This document shows, in pieces, positions 10,580 through 32,000 of a stretch of DNA of 32,000 nt (its first letter is position 1; the number at the start of each line of letters is the position of its first letter). The position numbers were made by a program, and so were the translations under genes. The stretch comes from Mycolicibacterium smegmatis (GTDB lineage: Bacteria > Actinomycetota > Actinomycetes > Mycobacteriales > Mycobacteriaceae), in assembly GCF_001457595.1 (NCBI RefSeq), contig NZ_LN831039.1, positions 3,840,001 through 3,872,000 of the forward strand, written 5' to 3'. The notes under the pieces are model-generated. The model ran no database searches. It saw only the letters and a list, made by a program, of their open reading frames with translations, and was not told the origin of the DNA.

Positions 10580-12130
10580 TCACGCCGGAGTCGGCGTGCC
10601 CGAAACAGATTCGAGCTCTTCGATGGCCGCGGCCACGCCCGCGCCGTACGCCGGATCGGCCTTCGCGCAGTGTCCGACCCACCGCTGTTGAATCTCGGCG
10701 GGCACCCCGCGCATGGCCCTGGCGGTGTTGCCGAACAACCTGCGCTGCTCGTCGGGTGTCATCAGCCGGAACAGATTTCCGGGCTGTGTGTAGTAGTCGG
10801 CGTCGTCCTCGCGGAAGTTCCAGTTGCGCGCCGAGACGTCACCGAGCGGCTCCGGCGGGTATGCATAGGCCGGCTGCTCCTGCCATTCCCCGTAGCTGTT
10901 GGGCTCGTAGCCCAAGGTGCTGCCGTAGTTTCCGTCGACACGCATGGCGCCGTCACGGTGATAGCCGTGCACCGGGCACCGGGCGGTGTTCACCGGGATC
11001 TGGTGGTGGTTGATCCCCAGCCGGTAGTTCTGTGCGTCGTTGTAGGAGAACAGCCGGCCCTGCAGCATCTTGTCCGGTGAGAAACCGATTCCCGGCACGA
11101 TTCGCGCCGGGGAGAATGCGGCCTGCTCCACCTCGGCGAAGTAGTTGTCCGGATTGCGGTTGAGTTCCCACTCGCCCACCTCGATCAACGGGTAGTCGGC
11201 GTGCGGCCAGACCTTGGTCAGGTCGAACGGGTGGTACGGCACCGTCGCGGCGTCGGATTCCGGCATGATCTGTACGCACAGCTTCCAGCGCGGGAAGTCG
11301 CCACATTCGATGGCCTCGTACAGGTCACGCTGATGGCTCTCGCGGTCCGTGCCGATGAGCGCCTCGGCTTCGGCATCCGTGAGGTGGCCGAGTTCCTGTT
11401 GGCAGACATGGTGGAACTTGACCCAATGCCGCACACCCTCGGCATTGACGAAACTGTAGGTGTGCGAGCCGAACCCGTGCATACGGCGGTAGGACGACGG
11501 GATTCCCCGGTCTCCCATCGTCATGGTCACCTGGTGCAGCGATTCCGGCAGCAGGCTCCACCAGTCCCAGTTGTTGTGCGGGCTGCGCAGATTGGTGCGG
11601 GGGTCCCGCTTGACGACGTGGTTGAGGTCGGTGAACTTCAGTGGGTCACGGATGAAGAACACCGGGGTGTTGTTTCCGACCAGGTCCCAGTTGCCCTCCT
11701 CGGTGTAGAACTTGACCGCGAACCCGCGGATGTCACGCTCGGCGTCGGCGGCGCCGCGTTCACCGGCCACGGTCGAGAACCGCACGAACAGGTCGGTCTG
11801 CTTGCCGATTTCGGAGAACAGTTTGGCCGTGGTGAACCGGGTGATGTCGCCTGTGACGGTGAAGGTCCCGTACGCGCCGGACCCCTTCGCGTGCATGCGG
11901 CGTTCCGGGATGACCTCCCGGTCGAAGTGGGCCAGTTTCTCCAGGTACCACACATACTGCAGCAGCATCGGGCCACGTGGGCCTGCGGTGATCACGTTGT
12001 TGTTGTCGACGACGGGCGCGCCTGCGATCGTCGTCAACTTGCCGTTCGACGATGTGCCGTTCGTCTCGGGCGCGGCCCCGTTACCGTTGGTGGTCACTTG
12101 CTCTCCTCTTCGACGGTCGATCGCGGTCAT
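10580..12130 (-). CDS. Monofunctional heme catalase (small-subunit type)
   Basis: Catalase core: [69 protein letters not shown], and [14 protein letters not shown] (proximal Tyr region). The start is ambiguous: ATG at 12130, or GTG at 12097 preceded by GAGGAG. The ORF-track extension to 12460 overlaps the LuxR gene and is rejected. Confidence 0.9.
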
Positions 12131-12169
12131 TCGACTCAACCAGCGGCCCGTGCTCGATTGCGCCCGTGT

Positions 12170-12206
12170 CACCCCGGGGCGCTGACGCCAGGGGTTTCCC
12201 GGGGTG
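12170..12206 (-). terminator. Candidate hairpin just downstream of the LuxR-family gene
   Basis: CACCCCGGG (12170-12178) and CCCGGGGTG (12198-12206) form a perfect 9-bp GC-rich stem with a 19-nt loop, 8 nt beyond the stop codon at 12214-12216. There is no U-tract. Confidence 0.3.
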
Positions 12207-12213
12207 CACGGAC

Positions 12214-14961
12214 CTACGGTGGCGGCAGTTCGCGGCTGCGTAGCTCCTTGCGGGATGCGACGCCGAGCTTGGAGAAGATCTTGCTCAAATGCCATTCGAC
12301 CGTGCGCGCACTGATGAACAACTGCGCCGCGATCTCGGAATTGGTCCGGCCCTCGGCGGCCAATCGGGCGATGTGGCTCTCCTGGCCCGTCAGCTCGACC
12401 ACTGGTCCCCCGTCGCGCCTGCGTACGGCCTCCCCGGTCGCTTCGAGTTCGCGCCGGCACCGATCGGCGAACCCTTCTGCGCCCATCTCGCTGAACATCT
12501 CCTCAGCACGGTGCAGCGCAGCGCGGGCATCCATCCGCCGCCCTTGTCGTCGTAGCCATTCCCCGTACACCAGATACGTGCGGGCCAGGTAGACGACGGC
12601 GGTGCTGCCCTCCAGATGCGCGATGGCGCTGCGGTATTCCGCCTCGGCCTCCGATCCCTCGGTCAGCAACGCCCGTGCACGTGCCGCAAGGCCCAGCGCG
12701 GTGGTGGTCCCGCCGGCCTCGGCACGTTCGACCAGCCGGGTGAGCGCCTCCCCCGCCGCTGCCGTCTCGGCGCTTCGCGAAGCCGCCTCGATCAACTCCA
12801 CGAGCACGAGGTTCGTGATGCCGATGTCGTCGTACGCCAGCGCGGCCCGGCAGCAGTTGAGCGCCTCGCCGTACTGGCCGAGGCTGTTGTGCAGTACCGC
12901 CGATGCGAACATGGCGGCGCCCACCGAGTAACCGTGGCCGTGGACCTTGTCCGCATCCTCGGTGATCGCCACGACGATTTCGCGTGTCGCCTTCTCCTGC
13001 CCCTGAAAGGCGGTCAACAGGGCGGTACCGACGCCGAGTTGAGGGCCGCCGATCGCTGTGGCGATGGCCTCTGCCTCGGAAAGGTGCGCCGCGGCGTCCG
13101 CCAACCGTCCGGAGAAGATCTCCGCCGTCGCGAGCGCACCGAGGGCCGGCGGAAGCGTGGCCAGTGCGCCGGCACCGGCGAGCAGCGCGTGCTGGCGCAG
13201 CGCGAGAGTTTCGAAGGCGTCGAAATCGAAGAGCTCCAGACAGATTCGCGTCGCCATGTCGTAATACTGCGGCTCCGCCGTTGCGTCGGCGTCGAGGCGT
13301 AGGAACTCCTGCATGGCCTTCTTCAACGACACGGCCCCGTCCACATATCCGTCGAGCATCCGAACGATCAGCCCGCACAGCAGGACATCAACCGCCCGCT
13401 GCGGCACGAGGGGCCCGACAAGCGGTCGGGCCGCGCCCGCGACGGACACTGCACTGGTCGTCGGGCCCGACATCCGGCCCGCCTGGATCGCCGCCGACAG
13501 CGCCTCGAACACGTTCTCGCGGGCGAGTTCTGGGGCTGCATCGGCCAGTCGCCCGGCGGTCTGCATCAGCAGCGGCACCGCATCTGCGGGGCGGGCCACC
13601 GCTCTGGCCCGCAGCCGGTCGATTCTGGCGGTCGTCAGGTCGTCGTCGGTCATCCGCCGGGCATCCACCAGCAGTGCCGCCGCCGACTGCGGCGCACCGG
13701 TGTCGAGTTTCGCCTGCGCGGCAGCGAGCGCACGCTCGACCCGCACCTGAGGGTCCGGGGTCAGACTGGATGCGAACGCCAGGAACGCCGCGGCCGCCGC
13801 GACCCCTCCCCGTTTGCGGGCGTCCCCGGCCGCGCTCTCCAACTGCGCGGCGACGTGCTCGTCGGGTCCGGCGGACGCGTGCCCCAGATGCCAGGCGAGG
13901 TGCTCGGTAGCGGAGGGCCCGTCGATGACGGCCGCCAGGGCCCGATGCGCCCTGCGGCGCTCGGCGGTACCGGCGTTTCGGTAGACCACTGACCGAATCA
14001 TGGGGTGGCGAAAGCACACCCGACTGTCGATCGAGATGAGATCGGCATCGACGGCCATATCCGCTGCGTCTTCGGGAAGACCGAGGTGGTCGGCAGCACC
14101 GGCCAACCATCGCGGGTCACCGGTGGGGTCTGCGGCGGCCACCAACAGCAGCGTCGTGGCGTGTGCGGGCAGATCGGCGAGGCGTCGATCGAAACTTCGT
14201 CGCAGCCGGCCGGCGAGCTGGTCGGCGTTCGCGAGCCCGAACCCGCCGGCCAGTTCCGCCGGTGTGAACACCCGGTGCAGCTCCAGTAGCGCCAGCGGGT
14301 TTCCGCGGGATTCGGCGAGAATGTTCTCACGCACCTGCTCGTCGATCTCCCCGGGCATCGTCCTGGTGAGCAGCGCCCGGGCGTCGTCGTCGGCGAGCCC
14401 GCGCAGTTGAAGTTCGGCGAGGCCGTTGAGGATTCGGTCCTCGCGTCGTTGGCACGCGGCAAACACGATCAGCGTCGGGTCGGCGTCCAGACGCCTGGCC
14501 GCGAAGGCCACCGCACGGAGTGACTCGGCGTCGACCCATTGCGCGTCATCGATCACACAAAGGGTCGGGCGTTCGGCCGATGCCTCCGACATCAACGTCA
14601 AGAGCGCAAGCCCGACGATCAACCGGTCCGGTGGGTCGCCGTCGGCCACGCCCAGCGCCACCTGCAGTGCGCGCTGCTGCGGCACAGGCAACCGGTCGAG
14701 GCGGTTGAGCAGCGGGGTGCACAGCTGGTGCAATCCGGCATAGGCCAGCTCCATCTCGGATTCGGAGCCACGGATCCGCAACACCCGGAAGTCGGCCGCG
14801 CGGGCGATCAGGTAGTCGAGGATGGACGTCTTCCCGACGCCAGGGTCGCCGCGCACGACGATCGTCGCGCTGTGCCCGCCACGTGCCTGGCTTAGCAGCC
14901 GCGCGAGCTGTTCCTGTTCACGATGTCTTCCGAGCAGACGGCGGGGACGGATTCCGGTCAT
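12214..14961 (-). CDS. LAL-type (large ATP-binding LuxR family) transcriptional regulator
   Basis: N-terminal Walker A ([12 protein letters not shown]), a long helical/TPR-like middle, and a C-terminal LuxR HTH ([45 protein letters not shown]). Start taken at ATG 14961 ([15 protein letters not shown]); the ORF is open to GTG 15009. Confidence 0.85.
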
Positions 14962-15054
14962 GCCGGCATGAACGTACGTTCCGCGAAAATCGATGTCAGC
15001 CGGTCGCACCGACTTCGCGCCGGCCGCACCCCGTTCACTCCGTCCAGGGTGCCG

Positions 15055-15799: not shown

Positions 15800-18376
15800 T
15801 CACCCCCGGGTCGCGGCACGGGTGTCCTCAGGTGTGGCGATCTCGGAGAGGAACTGTTCGAAGGTGGTCGGGGTCCGCGTTTCGTCGTTGCGGGGTTCGC
15901 GCATGATGATTCGGCGTTCGGCGACGTCGAGAGTCATCTGGGTGGTGCCGCTCGCCATGTGTTCGGAGAATCCGGCCGCCAGGAGATCGTCGTGCATCGT
16001 CTGTGCGTCGATCTCCTGACGCAGCGGTGGTGCGTTTGCGGACGGTCTCACCGGTCGCCATGAGCTCGGTCCGTGCGCGCTCGGCGAAGCCGGCCATTCC
16101 CATCGACTCGAACATGTCGAGCGCAATGCGCAGCTGTGTGCGGGCGTCGGTGCGTCGGCGTTCCCGGCGCAGCCATTCGCCGTAGACCAGGTGGGCTCGA
16201 GCGAGATCGGTGCGCAGGCGCGTGCGGCAGCCTCCACGAGTTCCAGCGCGGCCCACGTCGACAACGCCATGTCGATCTGGCCTGCCGCGCGTTCGGCCGG
16301 CGGCAGCGCGGCCGGGTAGTCACCGATGCCGTTGTGCAGCAACGCTTCGGAGTACTCTGCGGTGCTCAACCAGATTCCTTCACCGCGCGCCATGACATCC
16401 GCCATTGTGGATTCGATCATTGTCAACGTTTCGGCCCGTTGACCGCGCGTGGCCGCGAGCTGGACACCGGGTTTGGTGGCGAGCGCGTCTCCGGTTGCCT
16501 CTGTCACGGTCTTCAGCTCCTGAAGCAGCGCCGCCGCGGCGCCGAGCTCACCGGAAAGGGTGAGCCATACCGCACGCGAACCGAGCGCGAGCGGCAGCTC
16601 CGCCAGCGCACCCGCAGTGCGCGCGAGCTCGATATGCCGTGCCGACAGCACATCCCAGCTTTCGTCGTCCCAGATGTGCAGTGCCGCAATACCTGCCAGC
16701 CACAGAAAGCGACGTTCGCCGTCGGCTACGCCATGTCGTGCGCTGCTGACGGCGCGCCGCAGGGTGGGCACCGCCGCCGCATATCCGTCGGTGAAATATG
16801 TCGAGAACCCCTCTAGCAGAAGGGCAGTCAGCGTTTCCCGTGGCGGTATCGAGGAGGTCCGCGCCGCACGGGCCACATCTCGCACGCCGCCGCCGACTGC
16901 GAGTCGGCCCGCGAAGATCGCGGCCTGCAACGCTTCGAGGTATGTGGTGCGGGACAACTCGGCATCGACGGCCTCCAGCCGCCGGGCGGCCTTGAGCAAC
17001 AGCGTCGGGGCATCACTGCCCCGGTCGGTGACGTAGGCCAGCTGCGCGCGGACCAGGTCTGCGCGGGCGCCCAGGTGGTCGGTGAGCGGGCCGCCCTCGA
17101 CCACGGCCAGCAGGTCTGCGGCGGCCTCGAACGCGCCGGCCTGTGCCTTCGACGAGGACGCAGCCAATGCACGCTCGGCGCGCAGGACCGGATCGAGCGT
17201 CAGCATCGTCGCGCGCTCCAAGAACGCAGCCGCGGCGGCCAGCCCGCCGCGGGCCTGTGCACGACTGGCGCATCGTTCGAGTTCCGCCGCGACCGCCTCG
17301 TCGGGGCCCGCTGTGGCCTGCGCCCGGTGCCAGGCACAACGGTCGGGGTCACGCTCCGAGTCGGTCACCTCGGCCAGGGCACGGTGTGCCAACAGCCGGT
17401 CTCGCAGCGTCGCCGACCGGTAGATCGCCGAGCGCACGAGCGGGTGACGGAACCGCACGCGGATACCGAACTCGGCCAACCCGTCGGCCGTCGCGGGTTC
17501 GCCGGCGTCGGCGTCGATGCCCAGGCGGGCCGCGGCCCGCCACATCAGCGTCGGATCACCGGTCGGCTCGGCCGCGGCGATCAGGAGCAGCCGTCTGGTG
17601 TGCTCCGGCAGTGCGGCCATCCGGCGCTGGAAGCTCTCCTCGATGCGGCCCGACAACCGCACCGCACTGGGAATTCCGAAGCCGCCCGCCAACTCCCGGT
17701 CGGTCAGGTCACGCGGCAGCTCCATCAGAGCCAGCGGGTTTCCCCGGGTTTCGGCGATGATCTGATCGCGAATCCGCTCGTCGAGCGGTGCGTTCCACAC
17801 CGAGTCCATGAGCGCCGCGGCGTCCGCGTGGGGCAACCCGGCCAGTTCCAGCGTCGGCAGTTTCGCGATCTCGGGGTCGGGGGTACGGGTGGCCATGATC
17901 AGCGCGATGGGATCGGCGCCCAGCCGGCGTGCCACGAACGAGAGCACCCGGACCGATGCGCTGTCCAGCCACTGCACGTCATCGATGAGGCAGACCAGAG
18001 GCTGCTCCTCGGCGACGTGGGACAGCAGACTCAGCGCGGCCAGCCCGATCAGCAGCCGGTCGGGCGCAGTTCCCGCATTCAGGCCGAATGCGCTGCCCAG
18101 GGCCTCGCGTTGCGGATCCGGTAGATGATCGAGCCGGTCCAGCATCGGCATGCACAGCTGCTGCAGGCCGGCGTAGGCGAGTTCCATCTCGGATTCGATC
18201 CCCGCGGGCCGGATCAGCCGGTACCCCTCGGCTCGGCCGGCCACGTACTCGATCAATGCCGATTTGCCCACGCCCGGATCGCCACACACCACCAGTGCGC
18301 TGCCCGAGCCAGCACGGGCCGAGCGCAGGACGTCGTCGAGCACGCGGGATTCGGTTCGCCGGTCAATTAACTCCAT
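15800..18376 (-). pseudogene. Decayed paralog of the LAL/LuxR regulator (frame-disrupting internal deletion, no recognisable HTH)
   Basis: The N-terminus parallels the 12214-14961 gene ([32 protein letters not shown]). The conserved [26 protein letters not shown]...[17 protein letters not shown] block lies in a different frame (ORF 15828-16256). The switch is at about 16205-16230, where roughly 55-60 codons present in the paralog are absent. None of the three frames downstream of about 16025 shows a LuxR HTH. Confidence 0.7.
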
Positions 18377-19099: not shown

Positions 19100-20200
19100 G
19101 ATCCGCTCTCACTCGCATCGGCAGGTGCCTAGCGGAAGTGGCTAGGTGTAGGAGGGCACGACGTTGGTGACGCCTACACGGAGCCTAGAGACTGGTGGCT
19201 GGCCGCCGGATCCACTGTGCGGCCGGTGGTAGTTGTAATGGATGTTCCAGATGGCTATTGCGGATGAGCGGGCGTCTTCGTTGGTGAACTCCCGAGCGTA
19301 GAGCAGTTCCTCCGCCAGGATGCGTTGGTAGCGTTCCACTTTCCCGTTATGGCGAGGCGTGTACGGCTTCGTGCGTTGGTGCCGAGCCCGCTGGCCGATG
19401 CTTCGGGCGAAGTCGCCGGACCGGTAGCAGGCTCCGTTGTCGGTGACGATTCGGTGGATGTGGATGATGCCGTGGGCGGCGAACCAGACCTTCGCTCGGG
19501 CGAGAAAGGTAGCCGCGGTCGCGCCCTTCTCGTCAGCGAGCGGCTCGGTGTAGGCAAGCCGGGAGTATCCGTCGATCGCCGAGTGCAGGTAGGTATAGCC
19601 AGCCTTGGCGCCGGCGGTCTTGGCGCGGTCGGCCGCGCGGTTCTGCGCGCTATCGCGGCCATGGATGCGCCATCCGCCGCCATCGGGGATGCGACCAACT
19701 TTCTTGACGTCGAGGTGGATCATATGGCCGGGCCAGCGGGCGGTGATCCGGCCCGGCTGGCGGTTAGATTCACCGTTCGGGTCGAGGAACCTTCGGTGAT
19801 TGAGGCCGAGGTGTGCCAGGTGCCGCGTGACGGTACGGCGGTTGAGCTGGATGCCCTGCTCGGACAGGTCATGTGTAATCCGCTGGGCTGACCACTTTTT
19901 CTCACGCCGACTGGTCTCGATCAGGGCGACTACGTGCGCTGGCGTTGCGGTGGGGCTGTGATGAGGCGTGGAGGAACGGTCGTGTAGGCCGAGTTCGCCG
20001 TGGCGTCGCCATCGATTGACCCACTTGCTCGCGCAGGCACGAGAGATGCCCATTTCCTTGGCTACGTGGGCGATGGGTCTGTTGCGGCATCGCTCGATGA
20101 GCCGATGGCGACCTTCGATCGTCAGCGGCGCGTTCTTGTGGGTCACTTTGTCGGACTGGGCGCGGATGCACGGCGCGCGGTGTCGCGGCTGTCGATGGCT
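19100..20200 (-). mobile_element. IS481-family insertion sequence (boundaries approximate, inverted repeats not confidently resolved)
   Basis: A single transposase ORF fills about 1 kb, as in IS481-type elements. The best candidate ends (19115-19143 vs reverse complement of 20141-20169) match at only about 14 of 29 positions, giving a 1055-bp element. No target-site duplication was found. Confidence 0.55.
19142..20146 (-). CDS. IS481-family transposase (HTH + DDE/rve integrase core)
   Basis: N-terminal HTH (IAHVAKEMGISRACASKWVNRW). DDE core: HLDVKK, LHSAIDGYSRLAY, TDNGACYRS, KPYTPRHNGKVERYQRIL. Confidence 0.9.
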   Translation of the reverse strand: MTHKNAPLTIEGRHRLIERCRNRPIAHVAKEMGISRACASKWVNRWRRHGELGLHDRSSTPHHSPTATPAHVVALIETSRREKKWSAQRITHDLSEQGIQLNRRTVTRHLAHLGLNHRRFLDPNGESNRQPGRITARWPGHMIHLDVKKVGRIPDGGGWRIHGRDSAQNRAADRAKTAGAKAGYTYLHSAIDGYSRLAYTEPLADEKGATAATFLARAKVWFAAHGIIHIHRIVTDNGACYRSGDFARSIGQRARHQRTKPYTPRHNGKVERYQRILAEELLYAREFTNEDARSSAIAIWNIHYNYHRPHSGSGGQPPVSRLRVGVTNVVPSYT

Positions 20201-23884: not shown

Positions 23885-25054
23885 CTAGTCGTCGTCGGCG
23901 GCGCCAGGGACGGCCGGTGCCTCGATACCCGGATGTTGTGCGCCGTCGTTGGCGCCCGAGGCGTCGTCGTCGCCGGCAATGAGCCCGAACACCGAGAAAC
24001 TCACGATCCAGTAGGCGACGTACCCCACCAGCAGCACCACTCCGTGCCAGCGGCGCAGGTGTCCGGTGAACAGCGCGTACGCCGCGAATCCGTTGATCAC
24101 GATGAGCGCAGGCAGATGCCAGCTGAAGACCTCCGGGGTGATCAACAGCGCACCGCCCAGCAGGGCGATGATGCCGACCTTCGCGGTCACCGAGAACACC
24201 ACACTGCCGATGACGTTGCCGACCCCGATCGCGGGCGCACCCCGCCGGAAGGGCTCGACGGTCAGGAAGATGTCCTCCAGGGACAGCACCAGTGTCGCGA
24301 TCGTCGCGCCGAAGACCGTGCCACCGATCGCGTATTCGTCGACGATGCCCTCGGTGCCCTCGGCCATGACCCAGGCACCGAGCACGACGCCGACCAACGC
24401 GACAAGCGCGAGCAGCAGCAACGCCCACCCAGGACGCTTGTTCGCCTTCGCCTTCGCCACATCACCGGTCTCGTAGAGACTGCCGCCGCCGCCCGGCCGA
24501 CCACCACCACCGGAGTTCCTGGCGCCGCTGCCGACGAGTTCGCGACTGTGCGCCACTTCCACGGCGTTCTCGGCTTCCACCACCTCCAGCACCTCCGCAC
24601 TGCGGAAGGTCGGCACGGCCCGCCGGGACTCGCGGTAGGCGATGTAGGCGATGAACACCACGAACAACGCGATGAGCACCACCCCGGTCACCCGGCTCAA
24701 CCCGCCGAGCAAAGCAGGCACGATCAACACGAGAGGTGCGATGGCGAACAGCGCGATGTAGTCCTTCGGGATCTCCACCGGCCTGGGCGCGAGGATGGCG
24801 GCCAGCGCGAGCACCAGGCCGGTCAGCGAGACGACGGTTCCGAAGATGACTCCGAGCGCGATGTCTTCGCTGCCCTCCAGGTTGAGCACCACGCCGAAGG
24901 CCAGATCGTCGAATTCGATGCCCGTGAACAGGATTGCGAGCAGAAAGAGCGATATCGCCAGGCCGCGCGCCGCTCCGACCAGATAGGTGATGAGTTTCTC
25001 GGCGCTGTAGATCAACAGGGCCGCACCGACGGTGAAGGCAATGATCGACGTCAT
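23885..25054 (-). CDS. CaCA-family (sodium/calcium exchanger-type) cation antiporter
   Basis: 389 aa from ATG 25054 (MTSIIAFTVGAALL). There are two multi-TM halves separated by a charged Gly-rich loop. Each half carries an acidic alpha-repeat-like motif (FTGIEFDDLAFG and LSLEDIFLTVEP). The ORF-track N-terminal extension to 25216 overlaps the miniprotein gene and is rejected. Confidence 0.75.
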   Translation of the reverse strand: MTSIIAFTVGAALLIYSAEKLITYLVGAARGLAISLFLLAILFTGIEFDDLAFGVVLNLEGSEDIALGVIFGTVVSLTGLVLALAAILAPRPVEIPKDYIALFAIAPLVLIVPALLGGLSRVTGVVLIALFVVFIAYIAYRESRRAVPTFRSAEVLEVVEAENAVEVAHSRELVGSGARNSGGGGRPGGGGSLYETGDVAKAKANKRPGWALLLLALVALVGVVLGAWVMAEGTEGIVDEYAIGGTVFGATIATLVLSLEDIFLTVEPFRRGAPAIGVGNVIGSVVFSVTAKVGIIALLGGALLITPEVFSWHLPALIVINGFAAYALFTGHLRRWHGVVLLVGYVAYWIVSFSVFGLIAGDDDASGANDGAQHPGIEAPAVPGAADDD

Positions 25055-25065
25055 CGGCAAACCTC

Positions 25066-25272
25066 TCAGTGTTGGTGTACTTCGCAGGCGCAGTACATGT
25101 TTCGACACGTGTAGCAGGCAGGCATGCCCTGGCAGCGCGGGCAGACGTCGCAGCTGACCGGCTCGGTGTGCCGGTGGGCATCCACGGAGTTGTACGATTC
25201 GCCGCAGTGGTAGCACGGCGGACGCCCGCTGTTGTCGTCCAATTCGCGAAGCTGATCGGTGGCCGAGTTCAC
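25066..25272 (-). CDS. Cys/His-rich miniprotein, 68 aa (zinc-ribbon or metallothionein-like)
   Basis: The GTG start overlaps the pqqE TGA (GTGA). Sequence: MNSATDQLRELDDNSGRPPCYHCGESYNSVDAHRHTEPVSCDVCPRCQGMPACYTCRNMYCACEVHQH, with 9 Cys and 5 His in the last 49 residues. Hand-counted GC3 is about 82 percent, which is coding-like. It ends 11 nt before the antiporter ATG. Confidence 0.5.
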   Translation of the reverse strand: MNSATDQLRELDDNSGRPPCYHCGESYNSVDAHRHTEPVSCDVCPRCQGMPACYTCRNMYCACEVHQH

Positions 25273-26399
25273 CGTCGTACCTGCAGGGGCAGCTGCGTCC
25301 GGGTGCGTCCGGGATTCGGTCGGGGAATCATCACACCGTCGTGCGGCAGCGTCGGGTCGTTGGCTGCCGCCACCGCCGTCTCGACCAGCCCGTGATCCGG
25401 GGAGAGATGACAGACGGGGTCGGTGCGGGCAGCGTCGCCGGTGAGCGCGAAAGCCTGGCAACGACAACCGCCGAAGTCGATCTCGCGACGGTCGCAGGTG
25501 CGGCACGGGTCGGGCATCCAGTCGTCGCCGCGGAACTGCCGGAAGAGTGGCGACTGCATCCAGATCCACTCCAGTGAATGCCTACGTACGTTGGTACCGG
25601 GCAGGCTCAGGCCGCGCGCCAACTCGTGGGCCGCTGGGCACGGCAGGGCTTCGCCGTTCGGCACCACGGTGAACTGGCGGCGTGCCCAGCCGGCCATGCA
25701 GGGTTTGGGATACTTCTCGTAGTAGTCGGGGATGACGTAGATGATCTCCATCCGGTTCCCGAGCCGGCCTCGAGCCGCCCGCACCACCGTCTGCGCGCGC
25801 TCCAATTGGTCTCTGCTGGGCAGCAATTCGGCGCGGTTGCGCCCCGCCCAGCCGTAGTACTGCGTGTTGGCCAGCTCGATCCGGTCGGCCTCCATCACGG
25901 CTGCCATGTCGAGGATGGCGCCGATCCGATCGATGTTCTGCCGGTGCAGCACCACGTTCAGCGTGAGCGGCCAACCCAGCTTCTTCACCAGCCGCGCGAC
26001 GTCGTGTTTGCGCTCGAACGAGGCGGTGCCGGCTATCCGGTCGGACACCTCTGGCTGATCGGCCTGAATGCTGACCTGGACATGGTCGAGCCCCGCGTCG
26101 CGCAGCTGCTCGGCGCGACGGGTCGAGAAGCCGAGCCCGCTGGTGATCAGATTGGTGTACATGCCGAGCCCGTTGGCACACCGCACGAGGTCGACGATGT
26201 CGTGGCGCTGCATGGGCTCGCCGCCCGAAAGGTGTACCTGAAGTACGCCCAGCTCGGCGGCCTCGGCGAACACCCTTTGCCATTCCACGGTGGACAGCTC
26301 GTCGCGATAGTTCTGCAGCGCAACGGGATTGGAGCAGTAGGGGCAGTGCAGCGGACAGGCATAGGTGAGCTCGGCGAGCAACGCATACGGCCTATCCAT
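25269..26399 (-). CDS. pqqE: PqqE, radical SAM/SPASM PQQ biosynthesis enzyme
   Basis: [25 protein letters not shown] (CxxxCxxC) and a SPASM-type Cys cluster near the C-terminus. ATG 26399 overlaps the pqqD stop by 8 nt. Confidence 0.9.
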   Translation of the reverse strand: MDRPYALLAELTYACPLHCPYCSNPVALQNYRDELSTVEWQRVFAEAAELGVLQVHLSGGEPMQRHDIVDLVRCANGLGMYTNLITSGLGFSTRRAEQLRDAGLDHVQVSIQADQPEVSDRIAGTASFERKHDVARLVKKLGWPLTLNVVLHRQNIDRIGAILDMAAVMEADRIELANTQYYGWAGRNRAELLPSRDQLERAQTVVRAARGRLGNRMEIIYVIPDYYEKYPKPCMAGWARRQFTVVPNGEALPCPAAHELARGLSLPGTNVRRHSLEWIWMQSPLFRQFRGDDWMPDPCRTCDRREIDFGGCRCQAFALTGDAARTDPVCHLSPDHGLVETAVAAANDPTLPHDGVMIPRPNPGRTRTQLPLQVRR

Positions 26400-26670
26400 G
26401 ATCGATCTCCATCCCGTGTTTGGCGACGAGGTCGGCGACGAAGCGTCGGACGTCGCCCTCGGCGATCTCGTCGTAGCGACTGCCGAGCTCGACCTGGATC
26501 TCCGCGATGGTCCGCCGGGCGTCACACAGCTCCACGATCGCCACGCCGGTGTCGTTGAGCACCCAGATCGTCTCCGGCGAGAGCAGGGCGTACTGCCCGC
26601 GCGCGGCGTCGAACCTCATCCGGACGTGGGGAGCCAGCCGCGGCCGGGCGGCGTCGTCAGCGATTTCCAT
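26392..26670 (-). CDS. pqqD: PqqD, PQQ biosynthesis peptide chaperone
   Basis: 92 aa from ATG 26670 ([42 protein letters not shown]...). It overlaps the pqqC end by 14 nt. Confidence 0.85.
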
Positions 26671-27373
26671 AAGCCTGGTCGATCGCATCGAGCATGCTCC
26701 ACAGCACGTCGCACTTGAAGGACAAGGCCGACAGCGCGGCCGTCTGGGTTTCCTGCGTGACGCAATGCCGTCGCACCACCTCAAGACCGTGTTCGGAGTC
26801 GCGGGGCGCCTGGGTGATGCGAGATCTGAAGTAAGAGAGTTCTTTCGGGTCGATCCAGGTGTAGTGACGTTCGAACGCCGCGAGCCGCTCGGCCATCAGG
26901 TCGGGTGCGAACAGCTCGGTCAGCGACGAGGCCACCGCCTCCAGCCATGGCCGGGTGCGGGTGAAGTTCACGTAGGCGTCGACGGCGAAGCGCACGCCCG
27001 GCAGCAGGTGTCGTGCGTCTTCGACCTCCGCCCTGGTCAAACCGACCGCTTCGGCCAGTCGCAGCCACGCCTCGATTCCCCCGGTTCCTTCGGTCGTGCC
27101 GTCGTGGTCGATGATTCGCTGGACCCAACGGCGCCGTATCTCACGGTCCGGGCAGGTGCTGAGGATCGCTGCGTCTTTCCGGGGGATGTTCACCTGGTAG
27201 TAGAAGCGGTTGGCCACCCACCCGCGGATCTCCTCGGGGCTGCACTGCCCGGTGTTCATCCGACGGTGGAAGGGATGCAGGTGGTGGTAATCCTTGACGT
27301 GCTCGCGAAGCGCTTCCTCGAACTCGTCGGGCGTCAGTGCCTGGGTTACTGCTCCTCGCGCCAGCGGTGCCAT
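26657..27373 (-). CDS. pqqC: PqqC, pyrroloquinoline-quinone synthase
   Basis: 238 aa: [46 protein letters not shown]. The SD GAGGAG spans the pqqB stop. Confidence 0.9.
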
Positions 27374-27382
27374 GGTTGCTCC

Positions 27383-28285
27383 TCAGATCTCCAGCTCGAG
27401 CCCGTCAGCGGCGACCTCGATGCCGTGGCGGTCGAGAATCCGCCGCTCCGGGGAGTCCTCGAGCAGGACGGGGTTGGTGTTGTTGATGTGGATGTAGACC
27501 TTGCGGTCGATCGGCAGCGATGCCAGCAGCTCGAGGCTGCCGCCGGCACCGGCGATCGGGACATGTCCCATCTCGCGTGATGTCTTGCCTGCCAGGCCGA
27601 GCCGGGGCATCTCGTCGTCGCGCCAGCAGGTGCCGTCGATCAGCAGGCCCGAGCAGTCGGCCAGTTCCTCGAGGACCTCCGGGGTCAGCCGTTGCACGCA
27701 CGGCAGGTACACCAGGCTGCGGCCACTACCTGCGTCGGTGAGTCGGTAGCCCACCACCCGGCCATGTGTCGCGGCTCCCGGGAATCGCATGGACTTGTCG
27801 GTGGGTACGTCGAACGCGCGGTACGACAACCCGTGTGATCCGTCGTCGAGCGGGACCTCGACCCCGGGCACCACCGGCTGCCACTTGACCGGGCAGTACG
27901 CCTCCAGTGTCCTGAGTACCCCGGTCCCTGTGGTGAGGGTTTCGTGCACCGACTCGGTCGCGTGGACTTCGAGACCACGCCCTTCCCGCATCAGCAGCAG
28001 TCCGAGGGTGTGGTCGAGTTCGGCGTCGGTGAGCAGCACAGCCTGAAGCCGGACCACTCTGCCTTCGTCGGGGTGCAGATCCGGGAAAGCCTCGATCTGG
28101 GATTGGATGTCCGGCGAGGCGTTGAACAAAAACCACTGTTTCCGATCAGCACTCACCGCGATCGACGACTGTGAGCGTGCCACGCAGGGTCGTGCGCCGG
28201 TCCGCACCGCACGGCACTGGGGACACCCGCAGTTCCACTGCGGAAACCCGCCGCCCGCTGCCGATCCGAGCACCCTCACCCACAC
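27383..28285 (-). CDS. pqqB: PqqB, metallo-beta-lactamase-fold PQQ biosynthesis protein
   Basis: MWVRVLGSAAGGGFPQWNCGCPQC, a typical PqqB N-terminus. 300 aa, GTG start. Confidence 0.9.
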   Translation of the reverse strand: MWVRVLGSAAGGGFPQWNCGCPQCRAVRTGARPCVARSQSSIAVSADRKQWFLFNASPDIQSQIEAFPDLHPDEGRVVRLQAVLLTDAELDHTLGLLLMREGRGLEVHATESVHETLTTGTGVLRTLEAYCPVKWQPVVPGVEVPLDDGSHGLSYRAFDVPTDKSMRFPGAATHGRVVGYRLTDAGSGRSLVYLPCVQRLTPEVLEELADCSGLLIDGTCWRDDEMPRLGLAGKTSREMGHVPIAGAGGSLELLASLPIDRKVYIHINNTNPVLLEDSPERRILDRHGIEVAADGLELEI

Positions 28286-28366: not shown

Positions 28367-28480
28367 CTAGTCGTCGCCGTCCAGGACGGCCACGTATGCG
28401 GTCACCTCGGCGGAAACCCGGATCTCGGCGAACGTGGGACGCTCCCACTTCTGCAGGGCGCCTGCGGACTTCTTCTCCAT
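28367..28480 (-). CDS. pqqA: PqqA, PQQ precursor peptide (37 aa; below the ORF-track size cutoff)
   Basis: My own translation of the minus strand: MEKKSAGALQKWERPTFAEIRVSAEVTAYVAVLDGDD. It has the conserved W..P...EI.V..EVT.Y pattern (E-x3-Y crosslink pair). ATG preceded by GGAAGAGAG. Confidence 0.85.
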   Translation of the reverse strand: MEKKSAGALQKWERPTFAEIRVSAEVTAYVAVLDGDD

Positions 28481-28529: not shown

Positions 28530-30215
28530 TCAGTCGGGCAGTGTGAAGGCGATCAACGCGCTGCCGTGGCCCGCGCCGAGCATCCCGGGGAGGATGCCCT
28601 CGAGCCAGCCGCCCCAGCCGACCGGTACGACGACGTACTGCTTGCCGTCGACACTGTAGGTCGAACAACTTCCGTGATGCCCACTGCCACAGTTGAATTC
28701 CCACAACTTCTCGCCGGTGTTGGCATCCAGTGCGGCGAACTCGCCGGTCGGGGTGCCTGCGAACACCAGGTCTCCCGCGGTGGCGAGAACCGATGCGGCC
28801 ATCGGGTAGTCGAGACGCCAGCGCCACTTCTCCTCACCGTGGGAGTCGAACGCGCTCACCGAGCCCGCCATGTCGTCGATGTCCACCTGAACGGCAGCAC
28901 CCCAGTACGGGATACCCTCCCGGAACTCGCGTCGACGGCGGGTGGCCGTGGCGCCCACGTCGGCGACGGGAACGTAGAACATGTCCGTCTTCGGGCTGTA
29001 CGCCGCGTGCGTCCATTCCTTCGCCCCGGCCGGTCCCGGGTAGAAGTGGACGGGCTCACCCTCCTTGTCGGGATACTTGCGCGGCGTCACCTTGCCGTCG
29101 CGGGTGATGACACCCCAGTCGATCCGATCCACGAACGGGGTGACGTGCTGCAGTTCCCCGTTGGTGCGGTCCAGCACGAAGAAGTAGCCGTTCTTGTCGA
29201 AGTGGCCGAGCAGCTTCTTGCCGTCCCGCTCGAAGAGCGTCATCTCCATCGTGGAGTCGTAGTCCCACAGGTCGTGCGGGGTGAACTGGTAGTGCCACTT
29301 GATTTCTCCGGTGTCGACGTCGAGCGCGACGACGGAGTCGGTGTAGAGGTTGTCGCCCTCGCGCACTGCACCGTCGAAGTCGGGCGCCGGGTTACCGGTG
29401 CCGGCGTAGTACAGGTTCAGCTCGGGGTCGTACGTCCCGGTCACCCAGTGGTTGGCACCACCACGCTGCCAGGCCTCGCCGTCGGCAGGCCAGGTCTCCG
29501 AGCCCGGCTCCCCCGGCTTGGGAACGGTGTAGGTGCGCCACAGGTGCTCGCCGGTCTTGAGGTCCCAGCAGTCGATGTGTCCACGCACGCCGAACTCGCC
29601 ACCGGCGCTGCCGGTGATCAGCGTGTTCTTGACCACCAGCGGAGCCAGGGAGGCGCTCTCACCGGCCCGTACGTCGCCGATCGTCTTCTCCCAGACCATC
29701 TCTCCGTTGCTGGCGTCCAGCGCGAGCAGGTGGGCGTTGGGTGTCACGAAGAAGACCTTGCCGTCGGCCACCGCGCAGCCACGGTTGACGTTCCCGCAGC
29801 ACAGCGACACGTCGAAGGGCACTGCGTGCTTGTAGCGCCAGAGCTGCTGGCCCGTTTTCGCGTCCAGCGCCCAGAACCAGCCGTCCCACCCGGTGACGTA
29901 CATGACGCCGTCCACGACCAGCGGGCACGCCTCGAACGCATAGGTCGACGCCCCCGCCATGTGCCCGGAGGCCCCTGCCTGGAACACCCACGCCGGACCG
30001 ATGCGCTTGACGTTCTCGGTGTTGATCTGGTCAAGGAGGCTGTACCGCTTGCCGTCATAGGCCCCGTAATAGGTGAGCCAGTTGTGCGACTCCGCCCGCG
30101 CATTGAGGAGGCGGTTGTAGTCGACATCGGTTGTCACCGCGGGCGCGGTTCCCGGAATGGGGCTCAGCGCCGACTGATTGATCGCTTCGCCGGCGTCGAC
30201 GTATTCAACGGTCAT
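28530..30215 (-). CDS. PQQ-dependent alcohol/methanol dehydrogenase, XoxF-like (D-x-D type), no signal peptide
   Basis: 561 aa eight-bladed propeller quinoprotein. Key features: vicinal Cys SLCCGNVNRG (C139-C140), GGEFGVRG (E207), GTGNPAP (N275) and PHDLWDYDS (D318, D320; codons 29262-29264 and 29256-29258). ATG 30215 is preceded by a strong SD (AGGAAGGG). The N-terminus MTVEYVDAGEAINQSALSPIPG is not hydrophobic. Confidence 0.9.
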   Translation of the reverse strand: MTVEYVDAGEAINQSALSPIPGTAPAVTTDVDYNRLLNARAESHNWLTYYGAYDGKRYSLLDQINTENVKRIGPAWVFQAGASGHMAGASTYAFEACPLVVDGVMYVTGWDGWFWALDAKTGQQLWRYKHAVPFDVSLCCGNVNRGCAVADGKVFFVTPNAHLLALDASNGEMVWEKTIGDVRAGESASLAPLVVKNTLITGSAGGEFGVRGHIDCWDLKTGEHLWRTYTVPKPGEPGSETWPADGEAWQRGGANHWVTGTYDPELNLYYAGTGNPAPDFDGAVREGDNLYTDSVVALDVDTGEIKWHYQFTPHDLWDYDSTMEMTLFERDGKKLLGHFDKNGYFFVLDRTNGELQHVTPFVDRIDWGVITRDGKVTPRKYPDKEGEPVHFYPGPAGAKEWTHAAYSPKTDMFYVPVADVGATATRRRREFREGIPYWGAAVQVDIDDMAGSVSAFDSHGEEKWRWRLDYPMAASVLATAGDLVFAGTPTGEFAALDANTGEKLWEFNCGSGHHGSCSTYSVDGKQYVVVPVGWGGWLEGILPGMLGAGHGSALIAFTLPD

Positions 30216-30228
30216 TCTTGTTCCCTTC

Positions 30229-30699
30229 CTAGGGTCGCGGCTGATCGGGACGGTCGAGACGGGCCTCCGGTGGCACTTCGCCGAGAACGACGATCGCGGC
30301 GGTCAGACCCCGGCCTTCGTCGTTGCCGCCCGGCGAGCTGTACCAGTAGTAACCCGGGCCGTCGAGGTGCAGGACCGCCTTGCCCTTCGAGTGGTTGAGG
30401 AGCCAGAGGAACTTCCTGTCCCCGTTGCTCGGGAACAGCGCCGCGTGTGTGTTCTTGTCGTCGTTGATGACCGTCAGCTCGATGAAACCGCCGTGCGGCA
30501 TCACCAGAATCGCCGGATCCCAGGCGATCTCGTCCTCTTTGATCCGGATCGTCGCCTCCATCGTGCCATCGGCCCGTTCGGTCGCGGTGGCGATGGAACC
30601 AGTGCCCAGGACCCGGCCGAGCGCTGCGTGATTCTGCTTGTCCAAGCCGAGTTCGCGCAGTAGGTCGGATCGCTGATCTGGCTGATCTGTGACCGTCAT
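30229..30699 (-). CDS. Cupredoxin-like protein lacking type-1 copper ligands (no Cys)
   Basis: 156 aa. The pattern ATIRIKEDEIAWDPAILVMPHGGFIELTVINDDKNTHAALF ... GKAVLHLDGPGYYWYSSPGGNDEGRGLTAAIVVLG aligns by eye with cupredoxin-domain proteins (...HNF... / ...YxFxCxxPGHxxxGM). Here the Cys, second His and Met positions read S, G/N and L. The protein contains no Cys at all. Confidence 0.55.
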   Translation of the reverse strand: MTVTDQPDQRSDLLRELGLDKQNHAALGRVLGTGSIATATERADGTMEATIRIKEDEIAWDPAILVMPHGGFIELTVINDDKNTHAALFPSNGDRKFLWLLNHSKGKAVLHLDGPGYYWYSSPGGNDEGRGLTAAIVVLGEVPPEARLDRPDQPRP

Positions 30700-30843
30700 A
30701 GGACCTCACCTTCTCGTCGGTGAAACTTCGTTGTTTGTCGAGTGAAAAGTGCGGCGGACCGCATTCCCGTTCCATTCCGTTGATTTCGGCGATCCGGAAC
30801 ACGAGTTGGATGAGCGTTCAGAGTCGCGGACGCCGCTTGGCCG

Positions 30844-30870
30844 GTTACATCTCGCTGTGCGAGATGTAAC
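30844..30870. promoter_or_regulatory. Perfect 12-3-12 palindrome between katG and the PQQ operon; operator or hairpin
   Basis: GTTACATCTCGC TGT GCGAGATGTAAC. It lies 145 nt upstream of the first operon ATG (30699) and about 245 nt downstream of the katG stop. Confidence 0.4.
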
Positions 30871-31114
30871 TACGAAGACGATAGGTCCGGTCAACCCTTC
30901 GGTACAGGTGAGACCGCAGGGCGGTCATAGTGTGCCGTTCGCATGCCGCCAGGCACCGTTCGCAGTGATTCCGATCACGCGGACGAGACCGGCGGCCCGT
31001 CGAAAGTACGCATCGGCGACAGGCAGGACCTTCCCGTTCGCTGTGAAAGTCACACGTACGCACCATCGTTGACCGCCGCGCGCGCGTGGCGGGCCCGGGG
31101 CGGCGATCGCCGAA

Positions 31115-32000
31115 TCAGGTTCGGTCGAACAGGTCCAGGTTCATCACCTTGTCCCACGCGGAGACGAAGTCACGGACGAACTTCTCCTCAGCGTCCGCGC
31201 TCGCGTACACCTCGGAGATTGCGCGTAGCACGGGGTCTGACGCGAAGGACAGGTCGACCCGGCTCGCGATCCACGTGACCTCGCCGGTGCGCCGGTCGCG
31301 ACCCTCGTATGCCGCCGTCCAGTCGGCGGTGTCCGCCCTCGGTGTCCACTCGATGTTCACGTCGAGCAGGTTGACGAAGAAGTCGTTGCTCAGCGCGCCC
31401 GGCGATGCGGTGAACACACCCAGCGGGGATCCGCCGTGGTTGGCGCCGAGCACACGCAAACCGCCGAGCAGTACCGTCATCTGCGGCGCAGTCAGGGTCA
31501 ACTGGCTCGCACGGTCGACGAGCAGATGCTCCGGAGGTGGTCGGTTGCCCTCGCCGACGTAGTTGCGGAATGCGTCCGCGGTGGGTTCGAGTGCGGAGAA
31601 CCACTCGATGTCGGTCCACTCCTGTGGTGCGTCCGTACGCCCCAGCCGGCAGGGGACCTCGATGGGGTGACCGGCTTCGGCGGCGGCATGTTCGACCGCC
31701 GCGCAGCCGCCGAGCATGATCAGATCGGCAGCGGAGATCTGTTTGCCCCCGCGATGGGAATCGTTGAACCGTCGGCGAATCCGCTCCAGTCGGTCCAGGA
31801 CGATCGCCAGCTTCTCCGGCTCGTTGACCGCCCAGCTCCGCTGCGGTTCGAGACGGATTCGCGCGCCGTTCGCGCCGCCGCGCTTGTCACTGTTCCGGAA
31901 CGTCGAAGCCGAGGCCCACGCCGTGGTGACGAGTTGCGATACCGACAGTCCCGAACCGAGGATCTCACGCTTGAGTGCGGCGACGTCGTCGGCGTCCGCG
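31115..32000 (-). CDS. katG: Catalase-peroxidase KatG, C-terminal part (5' end outside the window)
   Basis: The frame is open to the window edge: ...[54 protein letters not shown]...[16 protein letters not shown]...[21 protein letters not shown], the typical KatG C-terminal domain. Confidence 0.9.

Follow-up and report, generated by a model that had tools for sequence, protein, structure and literature searches.

The locus under study lies on the reverse strand of a 32,000-nucleotide stretch of the Mycolicibacterium smegmatis genome, here called the window, and includes a PQQ-dependent dehydrogenase gene, a small gene directly upstream and a set of pqq genes. Its features, in window coordinates, are the following.

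31115 to 32000, minus strand: 3' part of a katG paralogue (catalase-peroxidase), running past the window end and located 415 nt upstream of MSMEG_3727
30700 to 31114, no strand assigned: katG-MSMEG_3727 intergenic region, the presumed operon promoter region, with a perfect 12-bp inverted repeat at 30844-30870
30229 to 30699, minus strand: MSMEG_3727, predicted cupredoxin-fold partner, 156 aa (TIGR04339/PF23509)
28530 to 30215, minus strand: MSMEG_3726, PQQ-dependent dehydrogenase of the methanol/ethanol family, 561 aa
28367 to 28480, minus strand: pqqA, 37-aa PQQ precursor peptide with the E-V-T-A-Y motif, sequence read directly
27383 to 28285, minus strand: pqqB (TIGR02108, 380 bits)
26657 to 27373, minus strand: pqqC (TIGR02111, 342 bits)
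26392 to 26688, minus strand: pqqD, assigned from position and sequence only, start ATG at 26688 or 26670, overlapping the pqqC end
25269 to 26525, minus strand: pqqE, radical-SAM enzyme (TIGR02109, 514 bits)
25066 to 25272, minus strand: small Cys-rich protein, 68 aa with 9 Cys, starting at a GTG that overlaps the TGA of pqqE
23885 to 25054, minus strand: membrane transporter of the CaCA family (Na+/Ca2+ exchanger type), 389 aa (PF01699, TIGR00367), last gene of the operon

A 443-aa version of the CaCA ORF proved to be over-extended, as the GC3 profile and a homologue put the true start at 25054, thus exposing the separate Cys-rich ORF. An apparent stop inside katG in the ORF list was rejected, the translation being open to the window end, and a cluster labelled c20 was recognised as an antisense artefact of MSMEG_3727. 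The Cys-rich protein shows the pattern C-x2-C ... C-x2-C-x2-C ... C-x2-C-x4-C-x-C and matched no family model, and a homologue from another locus returned no Pfam or NCBIfam match. The 12-bp inverted repeat was not found verbatim at other loci.

The translation of the 561-aa ORF corresponded exactly to MSMEG_3726. The TIGR03075 profile scored 649.4 bits (cutoff 480) over residues 28-536 of the 561, and PF01011 scored 288 bits. The ATG at 30215 lies 13 nt past the TAG of the upstream gene MSMEG_3727 and is preceded, 7-15 nt upstream, by AGGAAGGGA, the strong Shine-Dalgarno sequence described in the first-pass annotation. The nearest upstream in-frame stop occurs at 30303-30305, 30 codons away, with no ATG, GTG or TTG in between, and this 30-codon stretch falls inside the MSMEG_3727 coding sequence. 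The same annotation had depicted an N-terminus devoid of basic or hydrophobic features; the first 27 residues, MTVEYVDAGEAINQSALSPIPGTAPAV, indeed contain no Lys or Arg and three Asp or Glu. The highest 12-residue Kyte-Doolittle mean within the first 60 residues was 0.93, the net charge of the N-terminus was -3, and inspection of hydropathy and of lipobox or RR motifs revealed neither a basic n-region nor an h-region.

An extra Asp two residues past the catalytic one is the mark of lanthanide-dependent PQQ alcohol dehydrogenases (PQQ-ADHs) such as XoxF, ExaF and PedH. In MSMEG_3726 the motif WDYD begins at residue 317, giving D318 and D320, and a vicinal Cys pair is located at positions 139-140, both as originally annotated. 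The metal ligands E207 (GGEFG) and N275 (GTGNP) and the catalytic D318 align with the corresponding PedH residues, and the stretches GGEFG, GTGNPAP and TPHDxWDxD are conserved between the two proteins. All catalytic residues are intact and the GC3 value is 0.88. Judged by its sequence, MSMEG_3726 is an intact PQQ dehydrogenase with a lanthanide-type active site.

Homologues of MSMEG_3726 were collected in 120 clusters showing 76-91% identity and, except for two outliers, a length of 559-568 aa. Relatives are encoded in 309 species genomes; the 80 that were fetched all belong to Actinomycetota (80/80), and the family members span Arthrobacter, Streptomyces, Pseudonocardia, Nocardioides and others. 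All 120 clusters start with MT-x-EYVDAGEAI, and both WDYD, including D320, and the CC pair are invariant (120/120). An N-terminal hydrophobic stretch above threshold was present in none of the 120 clusters, whereas among the full-length representatives of the remaining PQQ-ADH clusters 90 of 113 had one; the threshold, set at a mean hydropathy of 1.9 or more over 12 residues, is crude, signals being judged by hydropathy and motif inspection. To our knowledge, all characterised PQQ-ADHs of the methanol/ethanol family bear a signal and are periplasmic or extracytoplasmic. Our literature search on MSMEG_3726/3727 and on actinobacterial or cytoplasmic lanthanide PQQ-ADHs retrieved no published characterisation, only two genomic mentions.

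The protein had been labelled XoxF-type; the lanthanide Asp implied by this label was confirmed, but the label itself is imprecise since PedH is the best solved match. Among solved structures, PedH (6zcw/6zcv) scored 366-368 bits, followed by the XoxF enzymes (6dam 302, 4mae 284, range 277-302) and by MxaF at about 250. In a library clustered at 50% identity the family groups alone with a Gemmatimonadota clade, the next relatives being at most about 46% identical. By these library identities and PDB scores the MSMEG_3726 family looks like a separate clade, and it appears nearer to the PedH-type alcohol dehydrogenases than to the XoxF1-5 clades.

The product of the upstream gene is identical to MSMEG_3727, the name-giving protein of its family, with scores of 268 bits for TIGR04339 (cutoff 75) and 266 bits for PF23509 (cutoff 27). 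A homologue of this protein is encoded directly upstream of the dehydrogenase in 80/80 loci. A sequence-profile search of the PDB returned no match and Pfam Cupredoxin_1 reached only E=0.3. An AF2 model was calculated from a 141-sequence alignment including the Gemmatimonadota clade and showed a pLDDT of 85.9 and a pTM of 0.82; 30 close homologues alone gave a pLDDT of 56. A Foldseek search with this model returned 223 PDB matches at E<=0.001, the best 50 of which were all cupredoxin-fold proteins, with auracyanin 6kol on top (E 8.5e-6). The model thus suggests that MSMEG_3727 keeps the cupredoxin fold.

The type-1 copper site itself is largely replaced. Three ligands are swapped (Cys to S122, His to D127 and Met to L132) and H85 is retained, the S/D/L combination occurring in 118/120 actinobacterial partners. 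New candidate hard ligands, E128, H103 and N83, are fixed in the actinobacterial protein, and its C-terminal tail EVPPEARLDRPDQPRP is invariant. As three of the four copper ligands are missing, a role as type-1 copper electron carrier is excluded for the actinobacterial MSMEG_3727, and its assignment as an ordinary blue-copper acceptor was rejected. The N-termini of the homologues at the 80 loci show neither a hydrophobic nor a twin-arginine signal, and MSMEG_3727 has no signal peptide; many homologues carry a stop codon two codons ahead of the start. Export of the dehydrogenase by Tat hitch-hiking on MSMEG_3727, whose N-terminus ('RSDLLRELGL...') is faintly Tat-like, was discarded, because at none of the 80 loci does a homologue show a twin arginine or an h-region.

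Gene neighbourhoods were counted on those 46 loci that had 6 kb or more of flanking sequence to each side. Here katG was present in 46/46, a LytTR regulator in 44/46, the Cys-rich ORF in 29/46 and a CaCA or MntP-like transporter in 27/46, the CaCA and MntP families being best known for efflux, which fits less readily with metal supply. katG lies directly upstream on the same strand in 51/71 loci. Over all 80 loci a Cys-rich homologue was detected in 51, on the same strand in 49 of these 51, right after the dehydrogenase gene or after pqqE, and tblastn matches to pqqA fall downstream of the dehydrogenase in many loci. In Pseudonocardiales the module adjoins the formaldehyde-fixation genes of the ribulose monophosphate (RuMP) pathway encoding hexulose-6-phosphate synthase (HPS) and 6-phospho-3-hexuloisomerase (PHI); NCBIfam models identified HPS, PHI, transketolase, GlpX and PFK among the neighbours. 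This linkage makes a methanol-related role of the family possible. Among the operon genes and the annotated conserved neighbours there was no cytochrome c or XoxJ-type domain, and the conserved neighbours bear no signal peptide.

The closest outgroup consists of Gemmatimonadota orthologues (sequences P0242, L082, L083 and P0419-P0538), whose dehydrogenases are 58% identical to MSMEG_3726 (n=3). They share WDYD, CC, the metal ligands, the two-gene order and the conserved C-terminal tail of the partner. However, the three dehydrogenases display lipobox signals where the actinobacterial enzymes carry just 'MT', and the MSMEG_3727 homologues have a lipobox in 104/120 cases and the C/H/M ligand set in 115/120. 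The Gemmatimonadota pair therefore differs from the actinobacterial one in having two lipoprotein signals and a complete His/Cys/His/Met type-1 copper site, and its small partner looks like a blue-copper cupredoxin resembling a quinoprotein electron acceptor. The surroundings differ as well: katG and pqq genes were both absent from the Gemmatimonadota loci (0/6 each), the Cys-rich protein was missing, and the neighbours included TonB-dependent receptors (3/6) and DUF2231 membrane proteins. By this comparison, the actinobacterial pair appears to have lost both export signals and the copper ligands of the partner, and its module to have gained katG, the LytTR regulator, the Cys-rich mini-protein and pqqABCDE.

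These observations led us to favour, with some reservation, the hypothesis that an exported quinoprotein/cupredoxin pair was relocated to the cytoplasm in Actinobacteria and that MSMEG_3726 is its catalytic subunit. We know of essentially no cuproproteins in the bacterial cytoplasm, so the joint loss of copper ligands and signals is what such a relocation predicts. The comparative evidence favours a cytoplasmic location over an unrecognised export route, and MSMEG_3726 most likely works inside the cell, where it probably oxidises methanol or other primary alcohols. The ancestor would have been an exported lipoprotein dehydrogenase with a lipoprotein blue-copper acceptor. After relocation, PQQ made in the cytoplasm and Ln3+ (or Ca2+) would be loaded directly onto MSMEG_3726, the enzyme would oxidise methanol or other primary alcohols in the cytoplasm, and in loci with linked RuMP genes the resulting formaldehyde would be fixed on the spot. 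More speculatively, with cytochrome c and copper being absent, electrons might exit through the Cys-rich protein, the remodelled cupredoxin or both and might finish on O2 or H2O2; the invariable linkage of a catalase-peroxidase would then be explained.

A precedent for lanthanides in the cytoplasm exists in M. extorquens (PMC7391723). One point against the cytoplasmic model is the conserved vicinal Cys pair, since a strained disulfide would need to persist in a mycothiol-reducing cytoplasm. The standard medium of the M. smegmatis ethanol-growth study reportedly contained no added lanthanide. In that medium, the PQQ genes were dispensable for growth on ethanol (PMC6529628). A fuller version of the hypothesis would have Actinobacteria run a cytoplasmic lanthanide PQQ alcohol dehydrogenase whose former blue-copper partner has become a hard-metal (Ln/Ca or Fe/Mn) subunit or metallochaperone, with electrons passing via a novel Cys-rich carrier to a dedicated catalase-peroxidase or to O2 in an H2O2-linked pathway feeding RuMP; taken as a whole, we regard this scheme as improbable.

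MSMEG_3726 might also be cytoplasmic and yet work in vivo with Ca2+ or some other cation, having simply inherited D-x-D from a lanthanide-type ancestor. This reading, which we hold to be unlikely though worth serious attention, is consistent with the CaCA antiporter encoded by the last gene of the operon, and among the annotated neighbours none of the known lanthanide uptake systems (TonB receptor, Lut ABC transporter, lanmodulin) was seen. It also agrees with the presence of D-x-D in the Gemmatimonadota clade, from which it follows that the motif predates the relocation. However, D320 is invariant in all 120 family clusters, free cytoplasmic Ca2+ is very low, and an extra Asp introduced into Ca2+ enzymes disrupts them. 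In the characterised enzymes the extra Asp is needed for lanthanide coordination (bioRxiv 10.1101/2020.02.25.964783).

A different location was considered as well, with the pair still reaching the cell envelope in spite of its missing N-terminal signal, by SecA2 in mycobacteria, by riding on a partner that does bear a signal or by a type VII-like system, and with MT-x-EYVDAGEAI as the recognition element. The 12 N-terminal residues are strikingly conserved from Met1, more so than is usual where the homologous segment is just a lipoprotein tether, and the vicinal Cys pair is better suited to an oxidising compartment. Moreover, mycobacteria can export some signal-less proteins through SecA2; KatG and SodA of M. 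tuberculosis are examples, and at the present loci the conserved neighbour is katG. Nevertheless, the partner also lacks a twin-arginine or hydrophobic signal, no conserved neighbour carries one, and a mycobacteria-specific route cannot explain a missing signal in a family that extends to Arthrobacter, Streptomyces, Pseudonocardia and Nocardioides. A type VII-like route is disfavoured by Y5, which is off the YxxxD/E spacing of T7SS substrates. Finally, if copper could still be reached outside the membrane, nothing would account for the replacement of three ligands in 118 of 120 partners, and we therefore find signal-less export quite doubtful.

That the start was mis-called, a concern of the first-pass annotation now settled, or that the gene is a decaying remnant whose real protein has or had a signal peptide, is scarcely credible, because the 30 codons that separate the ATG from the next in-frame stop upstream contain no start and fall inside the MSMEG_3727 coding sequence, the same type of N-terminus is conserved from Met1 in the orthologues (120 clusters and 80 genome loci), and the high GC3 (0.88), complete catalytic residues and family identity of 76-91% speak against decay.

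If relocation to the cytoplasm is true, the rule that PQQ-ADHs are periplasmic would be overturned, and under the fuller scheme outlined above MSMEG_3726 would be without precedent both as an intracellular quinoprotein dehydrogenase and as a lanthanide enzyme in Gram-positive bacteria. Spread over at least 309 actinobacterial species, a cytoplasmic version would bring lanthanide biology to a major soil phylum, and intracellular handling of lanthanides and PQQ as well as a new kind of electron acceptor would be required. Actinobacterial methylotrophs such as Amycolatopsis and Pseudonocardia might thereby have a second methanol dehydrogenase, and the absent phenotype of MSMEG_3721-3727 in media without added lanthanide would be accounted for. 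That two signal peptides and a copper site were lost together would provide a clean natural example of a periplasmic redox module adapting to the cytoplasm, and the host being M. smegmatis mc2 155, the cytoplasmic model is open to direct genetics. Gram-positives have been dismissed as hosts in surveys because PQQ-ADHs, including the known lanthanide enzymes, were held to be periplasmic by definition, and a recent survey explicitly does not expect XoxF in these bacteria (PMC10875860).

Among known systems, PedH and ExaF belong with MSMEG_3726 to TIGR03075 and have the same vicinal Cys-Cys, metal ligands (Glu/Asn/Asp) and additional Asp. However, they are Sec-exported periplasmic enzymes delivering electrons to a c-type cytochrome, whereas MSMEG_3726 is signal-less, has a copper-less cupredoxin as its partner and lacks a neighbouring cytochrome c gene. 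The XoxF1-5 enzymes (4mae, 6dam, 6oc5) have the D-x-D signature and the PQQ propeller in common with MSMEG_3726, but they are periplasmic, and neither xoxG (cytochrome cL) nor xoxJ accompanies the M. smegmatis gene. Amicyanin, which serves methylamine dehydrogenase, and azurin, which serves Pseudomonas quinoprotein alcohol dehydrogenases, have the cupredoxin fold predicted for MSMEG_3727; in contrast to acceptors of this type, the actinobacterial protein is without three of the four copper ligands.

The actinobacterial nicotinoprotein methanol:NDMA oxidoreductase (Mno/Mdo) and the mycofactocin-dependent alcohol dehydrogenases carry out in the same organisms what is proposed for MSMEG_3726, namely cytoplasmic oxidation of methanol or primary alcohols feeding RuMP, although their folds and cofactors (bound NAD(P), mycofactocin) are unrelated. 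The growth of M. smegmatis on ethanol in the laboratory is owed to nicotinoprotein and mycofactocin-dependent enzymes and not to the PQQ genes (PMC6529628). As for H2O2, to which katG synteny by itself would link MSMEG_3726, yeast peroxisomal alcohol oxidase and catalase offer an analogy only, with no homology, in which a methanol oxidiser and a catalase share the compartment of formaldehyde assimilation.

The product of the open reading frame at 28530-30215 matches MSMEG_3726 (Mycolicibacterium smegmatis mc2 155) exactly, and the gene lies in an operon ordered MSMEG_3727, MSMEG_3726, pqqA, pqqB, pqqC, pqqD, pqqE, a Cys-rich ORF and a CaCA-type transporter. The features considered were the following:

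10580-12460, 12214-15009 and 15800-18376, minus strand: catalase (PF00199) and two AAA_16 proteins, as one group
23885-25054, minus strand: CaCA-type cation transporter (Na+/Ca2+ exchanger family), last operon gene
25066-25272, minus strand: Cys-rich ORF, 68 aa, GTG start overlapping the pqqE stop
28367-28480: pqqA
28530-30215, minus strand: MSMEG_3726 PQQ dehydrogenase, 561 aa, ORF read from the sequence
30844-30870: perfect 12-bp inverted repeat, GTTACATCTCGC-aca-GCGAGATGTAAC, in the katG-MSMEG_3727 gap
31115-32000, minus strand: katG paralogue (catalase-peroxidase), ending 415 nt upstream of MSMEG_3727

The inverted repeat may serve as an operator or form an RNA hairpin; none of the other 83 loci contains a verbatim copy. 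In M. smegmatis the housekeeping katG, which is linked to furA, is a separate gene, MSMEG_6384 (PMC3260234). An IS481-family transposase (284 bits, 19142-20146, minus strand) lies about 4 kb past the operon end. At 9-18 kb from the dehydrogenase are the monofunctional catalase and the two large STAND-type AAA_16 proteins, of which that at 12214-15009 also bears a GerE DNA-binding domain of the LuxR type. At the far end of the window, a carboxylic-acid-reductase-like protein (27-3266, plus strand; AMP-binding, PP-binding, NAD_binding_4) and an MmpL transporter (4035-6977, plus strand) appear unrelated to the PQQ-dependent alcohol dehydrogenase (PQQ-ADH).

MSMEG_3726 was assigned to TIGR03075, the methanol/ethanol PQQ-dependent dehydrogenases (NCBIfam, 649 bits against a cutoff of 480). 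Its nearest solved structure was PedH, an ethanol dehydrogenase that depends on lanthanides (6zcw/6zcv, about 367 bits), followed by XoxF (6dam, 302; 4mae, 284) and MxaF (about 250), so that the label "XoxF-type" given in the first-pass annotation fits only loosely: the lanthanide-type signature is present but PedH outscores XoxF. The ORF, its D318/D320 D-x-D motif and the vicinal pair C139-C140 were found as that annotation had described them. The metal/PQQ site was kept in the PedH alignment, namely GGEFG (E207), GTGNPAP (N275) and TPHDLWDYD (D318, D320), so the lanthanide-type signature is genuine, and both WDYD and CC were conserved in 120/120 homologue clusters. As a PQQ-ADH of the lanthanide type, MSMEG_3726 is intact. 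That its physiological metal is Ca2+ rather than a lanthanide we consider unlikely, and this question is orthogonal to that of location.

A Shine-Dalgarno-like AGGAAGGGA precedes ATG 30215, which is separated from the MSMEG_3727 stop by 13 nt. The 30 codons back to the nearest in-frame stop fall within the MSMEG_3727 coding sequence and contain no ATG, GTG or TTG. Residues 1-27 include three acidic residues and no Lys or Arg, and the N-terminus MT-x-EYVDAGEAI or a near variant was present in every one of the 120 homologue clusters that the search returned (76-91% identity). Using as signal criterion a 12-residue hydropathy mean of at least 1.9 within the first 60 residues, none of these 120 clusters reached the threshold, while among other PQQ-ADH clusters it was reached by 90 of 113 full-length representatives. 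The ribosome-binding site and the missing export signal noted at first reading were therefore borne out, also when a mis-called start was checked on orthologues, and an annotation error is ruled out by the upstream stop without a start codon and by the conserved N-termini. The absence of a signal is fixed throughout this large family.

A library clustered at 50% identity, searched exhaustively, showed the family to be isolated: fragments aside, the sole close representative was P0242 (60% identity by HMMER, 58% in the MAFFT alignment); further relatives showed at most about 46% identity and most had ordinary signal peptides. P0242 and the L082 and L083 orthologues come from Gemmatimonadota, and all three dehydrogenases carry a lipoprotein signal (…LVAGC, …AALGC, …VAAC) where the actinobacterial enzymes show just MT, the segment after the lipobox cysteine being the alignment counterpart of the actinobacterial N-terminus. 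An MSMEG_3727 homologue, longer at 182-224 aa, also precedes these genes. Neither katG nor pqq genes occurred in the six Gemmatimonadota loci examined; a TonB-dependent receptor adjoins the pair in three and a DUF2231 membrane protein occurs in two (L082:6441-8762, L083:12616-14778, L084:9413-11599), a layout as expected for a conventional periplasmic system. These receptors and DUF2231 proteins are candidates for lanthanide or PQQ uptake and for a membrane electron acceptor of the exported version.

The upstream partner was identical to MSMEG_3727 (156 aa; TIGR04339/PF23509, "MSMEG_3727 family PQQ-associated protein") and adjoins the dehydrogenase in 80/80 actinobacterial loci. Its AlphaFold model was confident (pLDDT 85.9, pTM 0.82, 141-sequence alignment), and the best 50 PDB matches listed were all cupredoxin-fold, including auracyanin, Cupredoxin_1, FtrB, CuA domains and multicopper oxidases. 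Among 120 Gemmatimonadota-type homologues, 104 had a lipobox, 110 a hydrophobic h-region and 115 the full type-1 copper ligand set. In 118 of 120 actinobacterial proteins, Ser, Asp and Leu replace the Cys, His and Met ligands and the signal is missing; His85, the first copper ligand, is invariant in both groups, and the actinobacterial group has gained Glu128, His103 and Asn83 as fixed positions. Sequence and model show that actinobacterial MSMEG_3727 is a cupredoxin lacking the type-1 copper site and that export signals were lost family-wide on both proteins. In the outgroup state, the dehydrogenase is exported and paired with a blue-copper acceptor.

Relatives of MSMEG_3726 were found by genome scan in 309 species genomes; all 80 genomes fetched from these were Actinomycetota, among them Mycobacterium, Arthrobacter, Cryobacterium, Saccharopolyspora, Amycolatopsis, Pseudonocardia, Streptomyces, Nocardioides and Rhodococcoides. 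katG lies beside the pair in 72/80 related loci. For 46 of the 80 loci, 6 kb or more of flanking sequence was available on either side; katG occurred in all 46 of them, a regulator of the GAF/PAS-LytTR type in 44, the Cys-rich ORF in 29 (51/80 overall) and an MntP-like or CaCA transporter in 27. The Cys-rich ORF, same-strand in all but two loci, directly follows the dehydrogenase or pqqE; it has nine Cys (C-x2-C ... C-x2-C-x2-C ... C-x2-C-x4-C-x-C) and a C-terminal EVHQH, and its homologue from one other locus matched no Pfam/NCBIfam model. Its possible roles in the system are as a metal-binding carrier of electrons or in the handling of disulfides. Many loci have an MntP-like (manganese-efflux family) gene instead of CaCA, e.g., L050:6315-6866; both families move hard cations and could handle Ca, Ln or Mn for the enzyme. 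An M19 membrane-dipeptidase-family gene recurs at the edge of mycobacterial-type loci, just upstream of the LytTR regulator (L065:401-1861; neighbour-gene cluster c19, 9 loci). Pseudonocardiales neighbours were 3-hexulose-6-phosphate synthase, 6-phospho-3-hexuloisomerase, transketolase, GlpX and phosphofructokinase (NCBIfam) and, by inspection, presumed fructose-bisphosphate aldolase, ribulose-phosphate epimerase and RpiB. Together these make up the RuMP set for assimilating formaldehyde, which suggests that methanol is a physiological substrate in these organisms. The module is thus linked to PQQ synthesis, katG, the Cys-rich protein and cation transporters, and to RuMP in some orders.

The bacterial cytoplasm makes essentially no copper available to proteins, so relocation there predicts the loss of both signal peptides and of the copper site, and all three are gone in the actinobacterial lineage. 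The first-pass annotation had proposed either a cytoplasmic lanthanide quinoprotein or an unrecognised export route; the outgroup comparison supports and sharpens this proposal. Non-classical export of MSMEG_3726/3727 would not predict the paired signal loss together with the copper-site loss, and we regard it as quite improbable. We rather favour, with some confidence, the reading that MSMEG_3726 is a PQQ-ADH of the cytoplasm whose site is of the lanthanide type. The enzyme would acquire its PQQ and a trivalent lanthanide (or Ca2+) in the cytoplasm, which is not chemically absurd since lanthanides reach the cytoplasm of M. extorquens (PMC7391723), and would there oxidise primary alcohols such as methanol. 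As electron carrier, the Cys-rich protein is a candidate; alternatively, it may be the factor forming the C139-C140 disulfide. The remodelled cupredoxin may act as a structural subunit or offer a site for a hard metal. That katG is universal suggests either H2O2 production from reduced PQQ and O2, or a peroxidase acting as electron sink. One of the main weaknesses of the cytoplasmic reading is the conserved Cys-Cys pair.

Haft (2011) pointed out that M. smegmatis has a single PQQ alcohol dehydrogenase, MSMEG_3726, encoded within the pqq cassette (PMC3023750). Krishnamoorthy et al. (2019) mentioned MSMEG_3721-3727 and showed that ethanol growth under their conditions is due to mycofactocin, not PQQ (PMC6529628), and a 2024 survey did not expect XoxF, being periplasmic, in Gram-positive genomes (PMC10875860). 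No study that we found characterises MSMEG_3726, its lack of a signal, the D-x-D motif or the cupredoxin that has degenerated. The gene family is therefore already catalogued but the biology proposed here is not; it would surprise specialists and is directly testable in a model organism. MSMEG_3726 shares its metal/PQQ site with PedH, its top-scoring solved relative. The Gemmatimonadota pair has the lipoprotein signals and copper site and the actinobacterial pair has neither.
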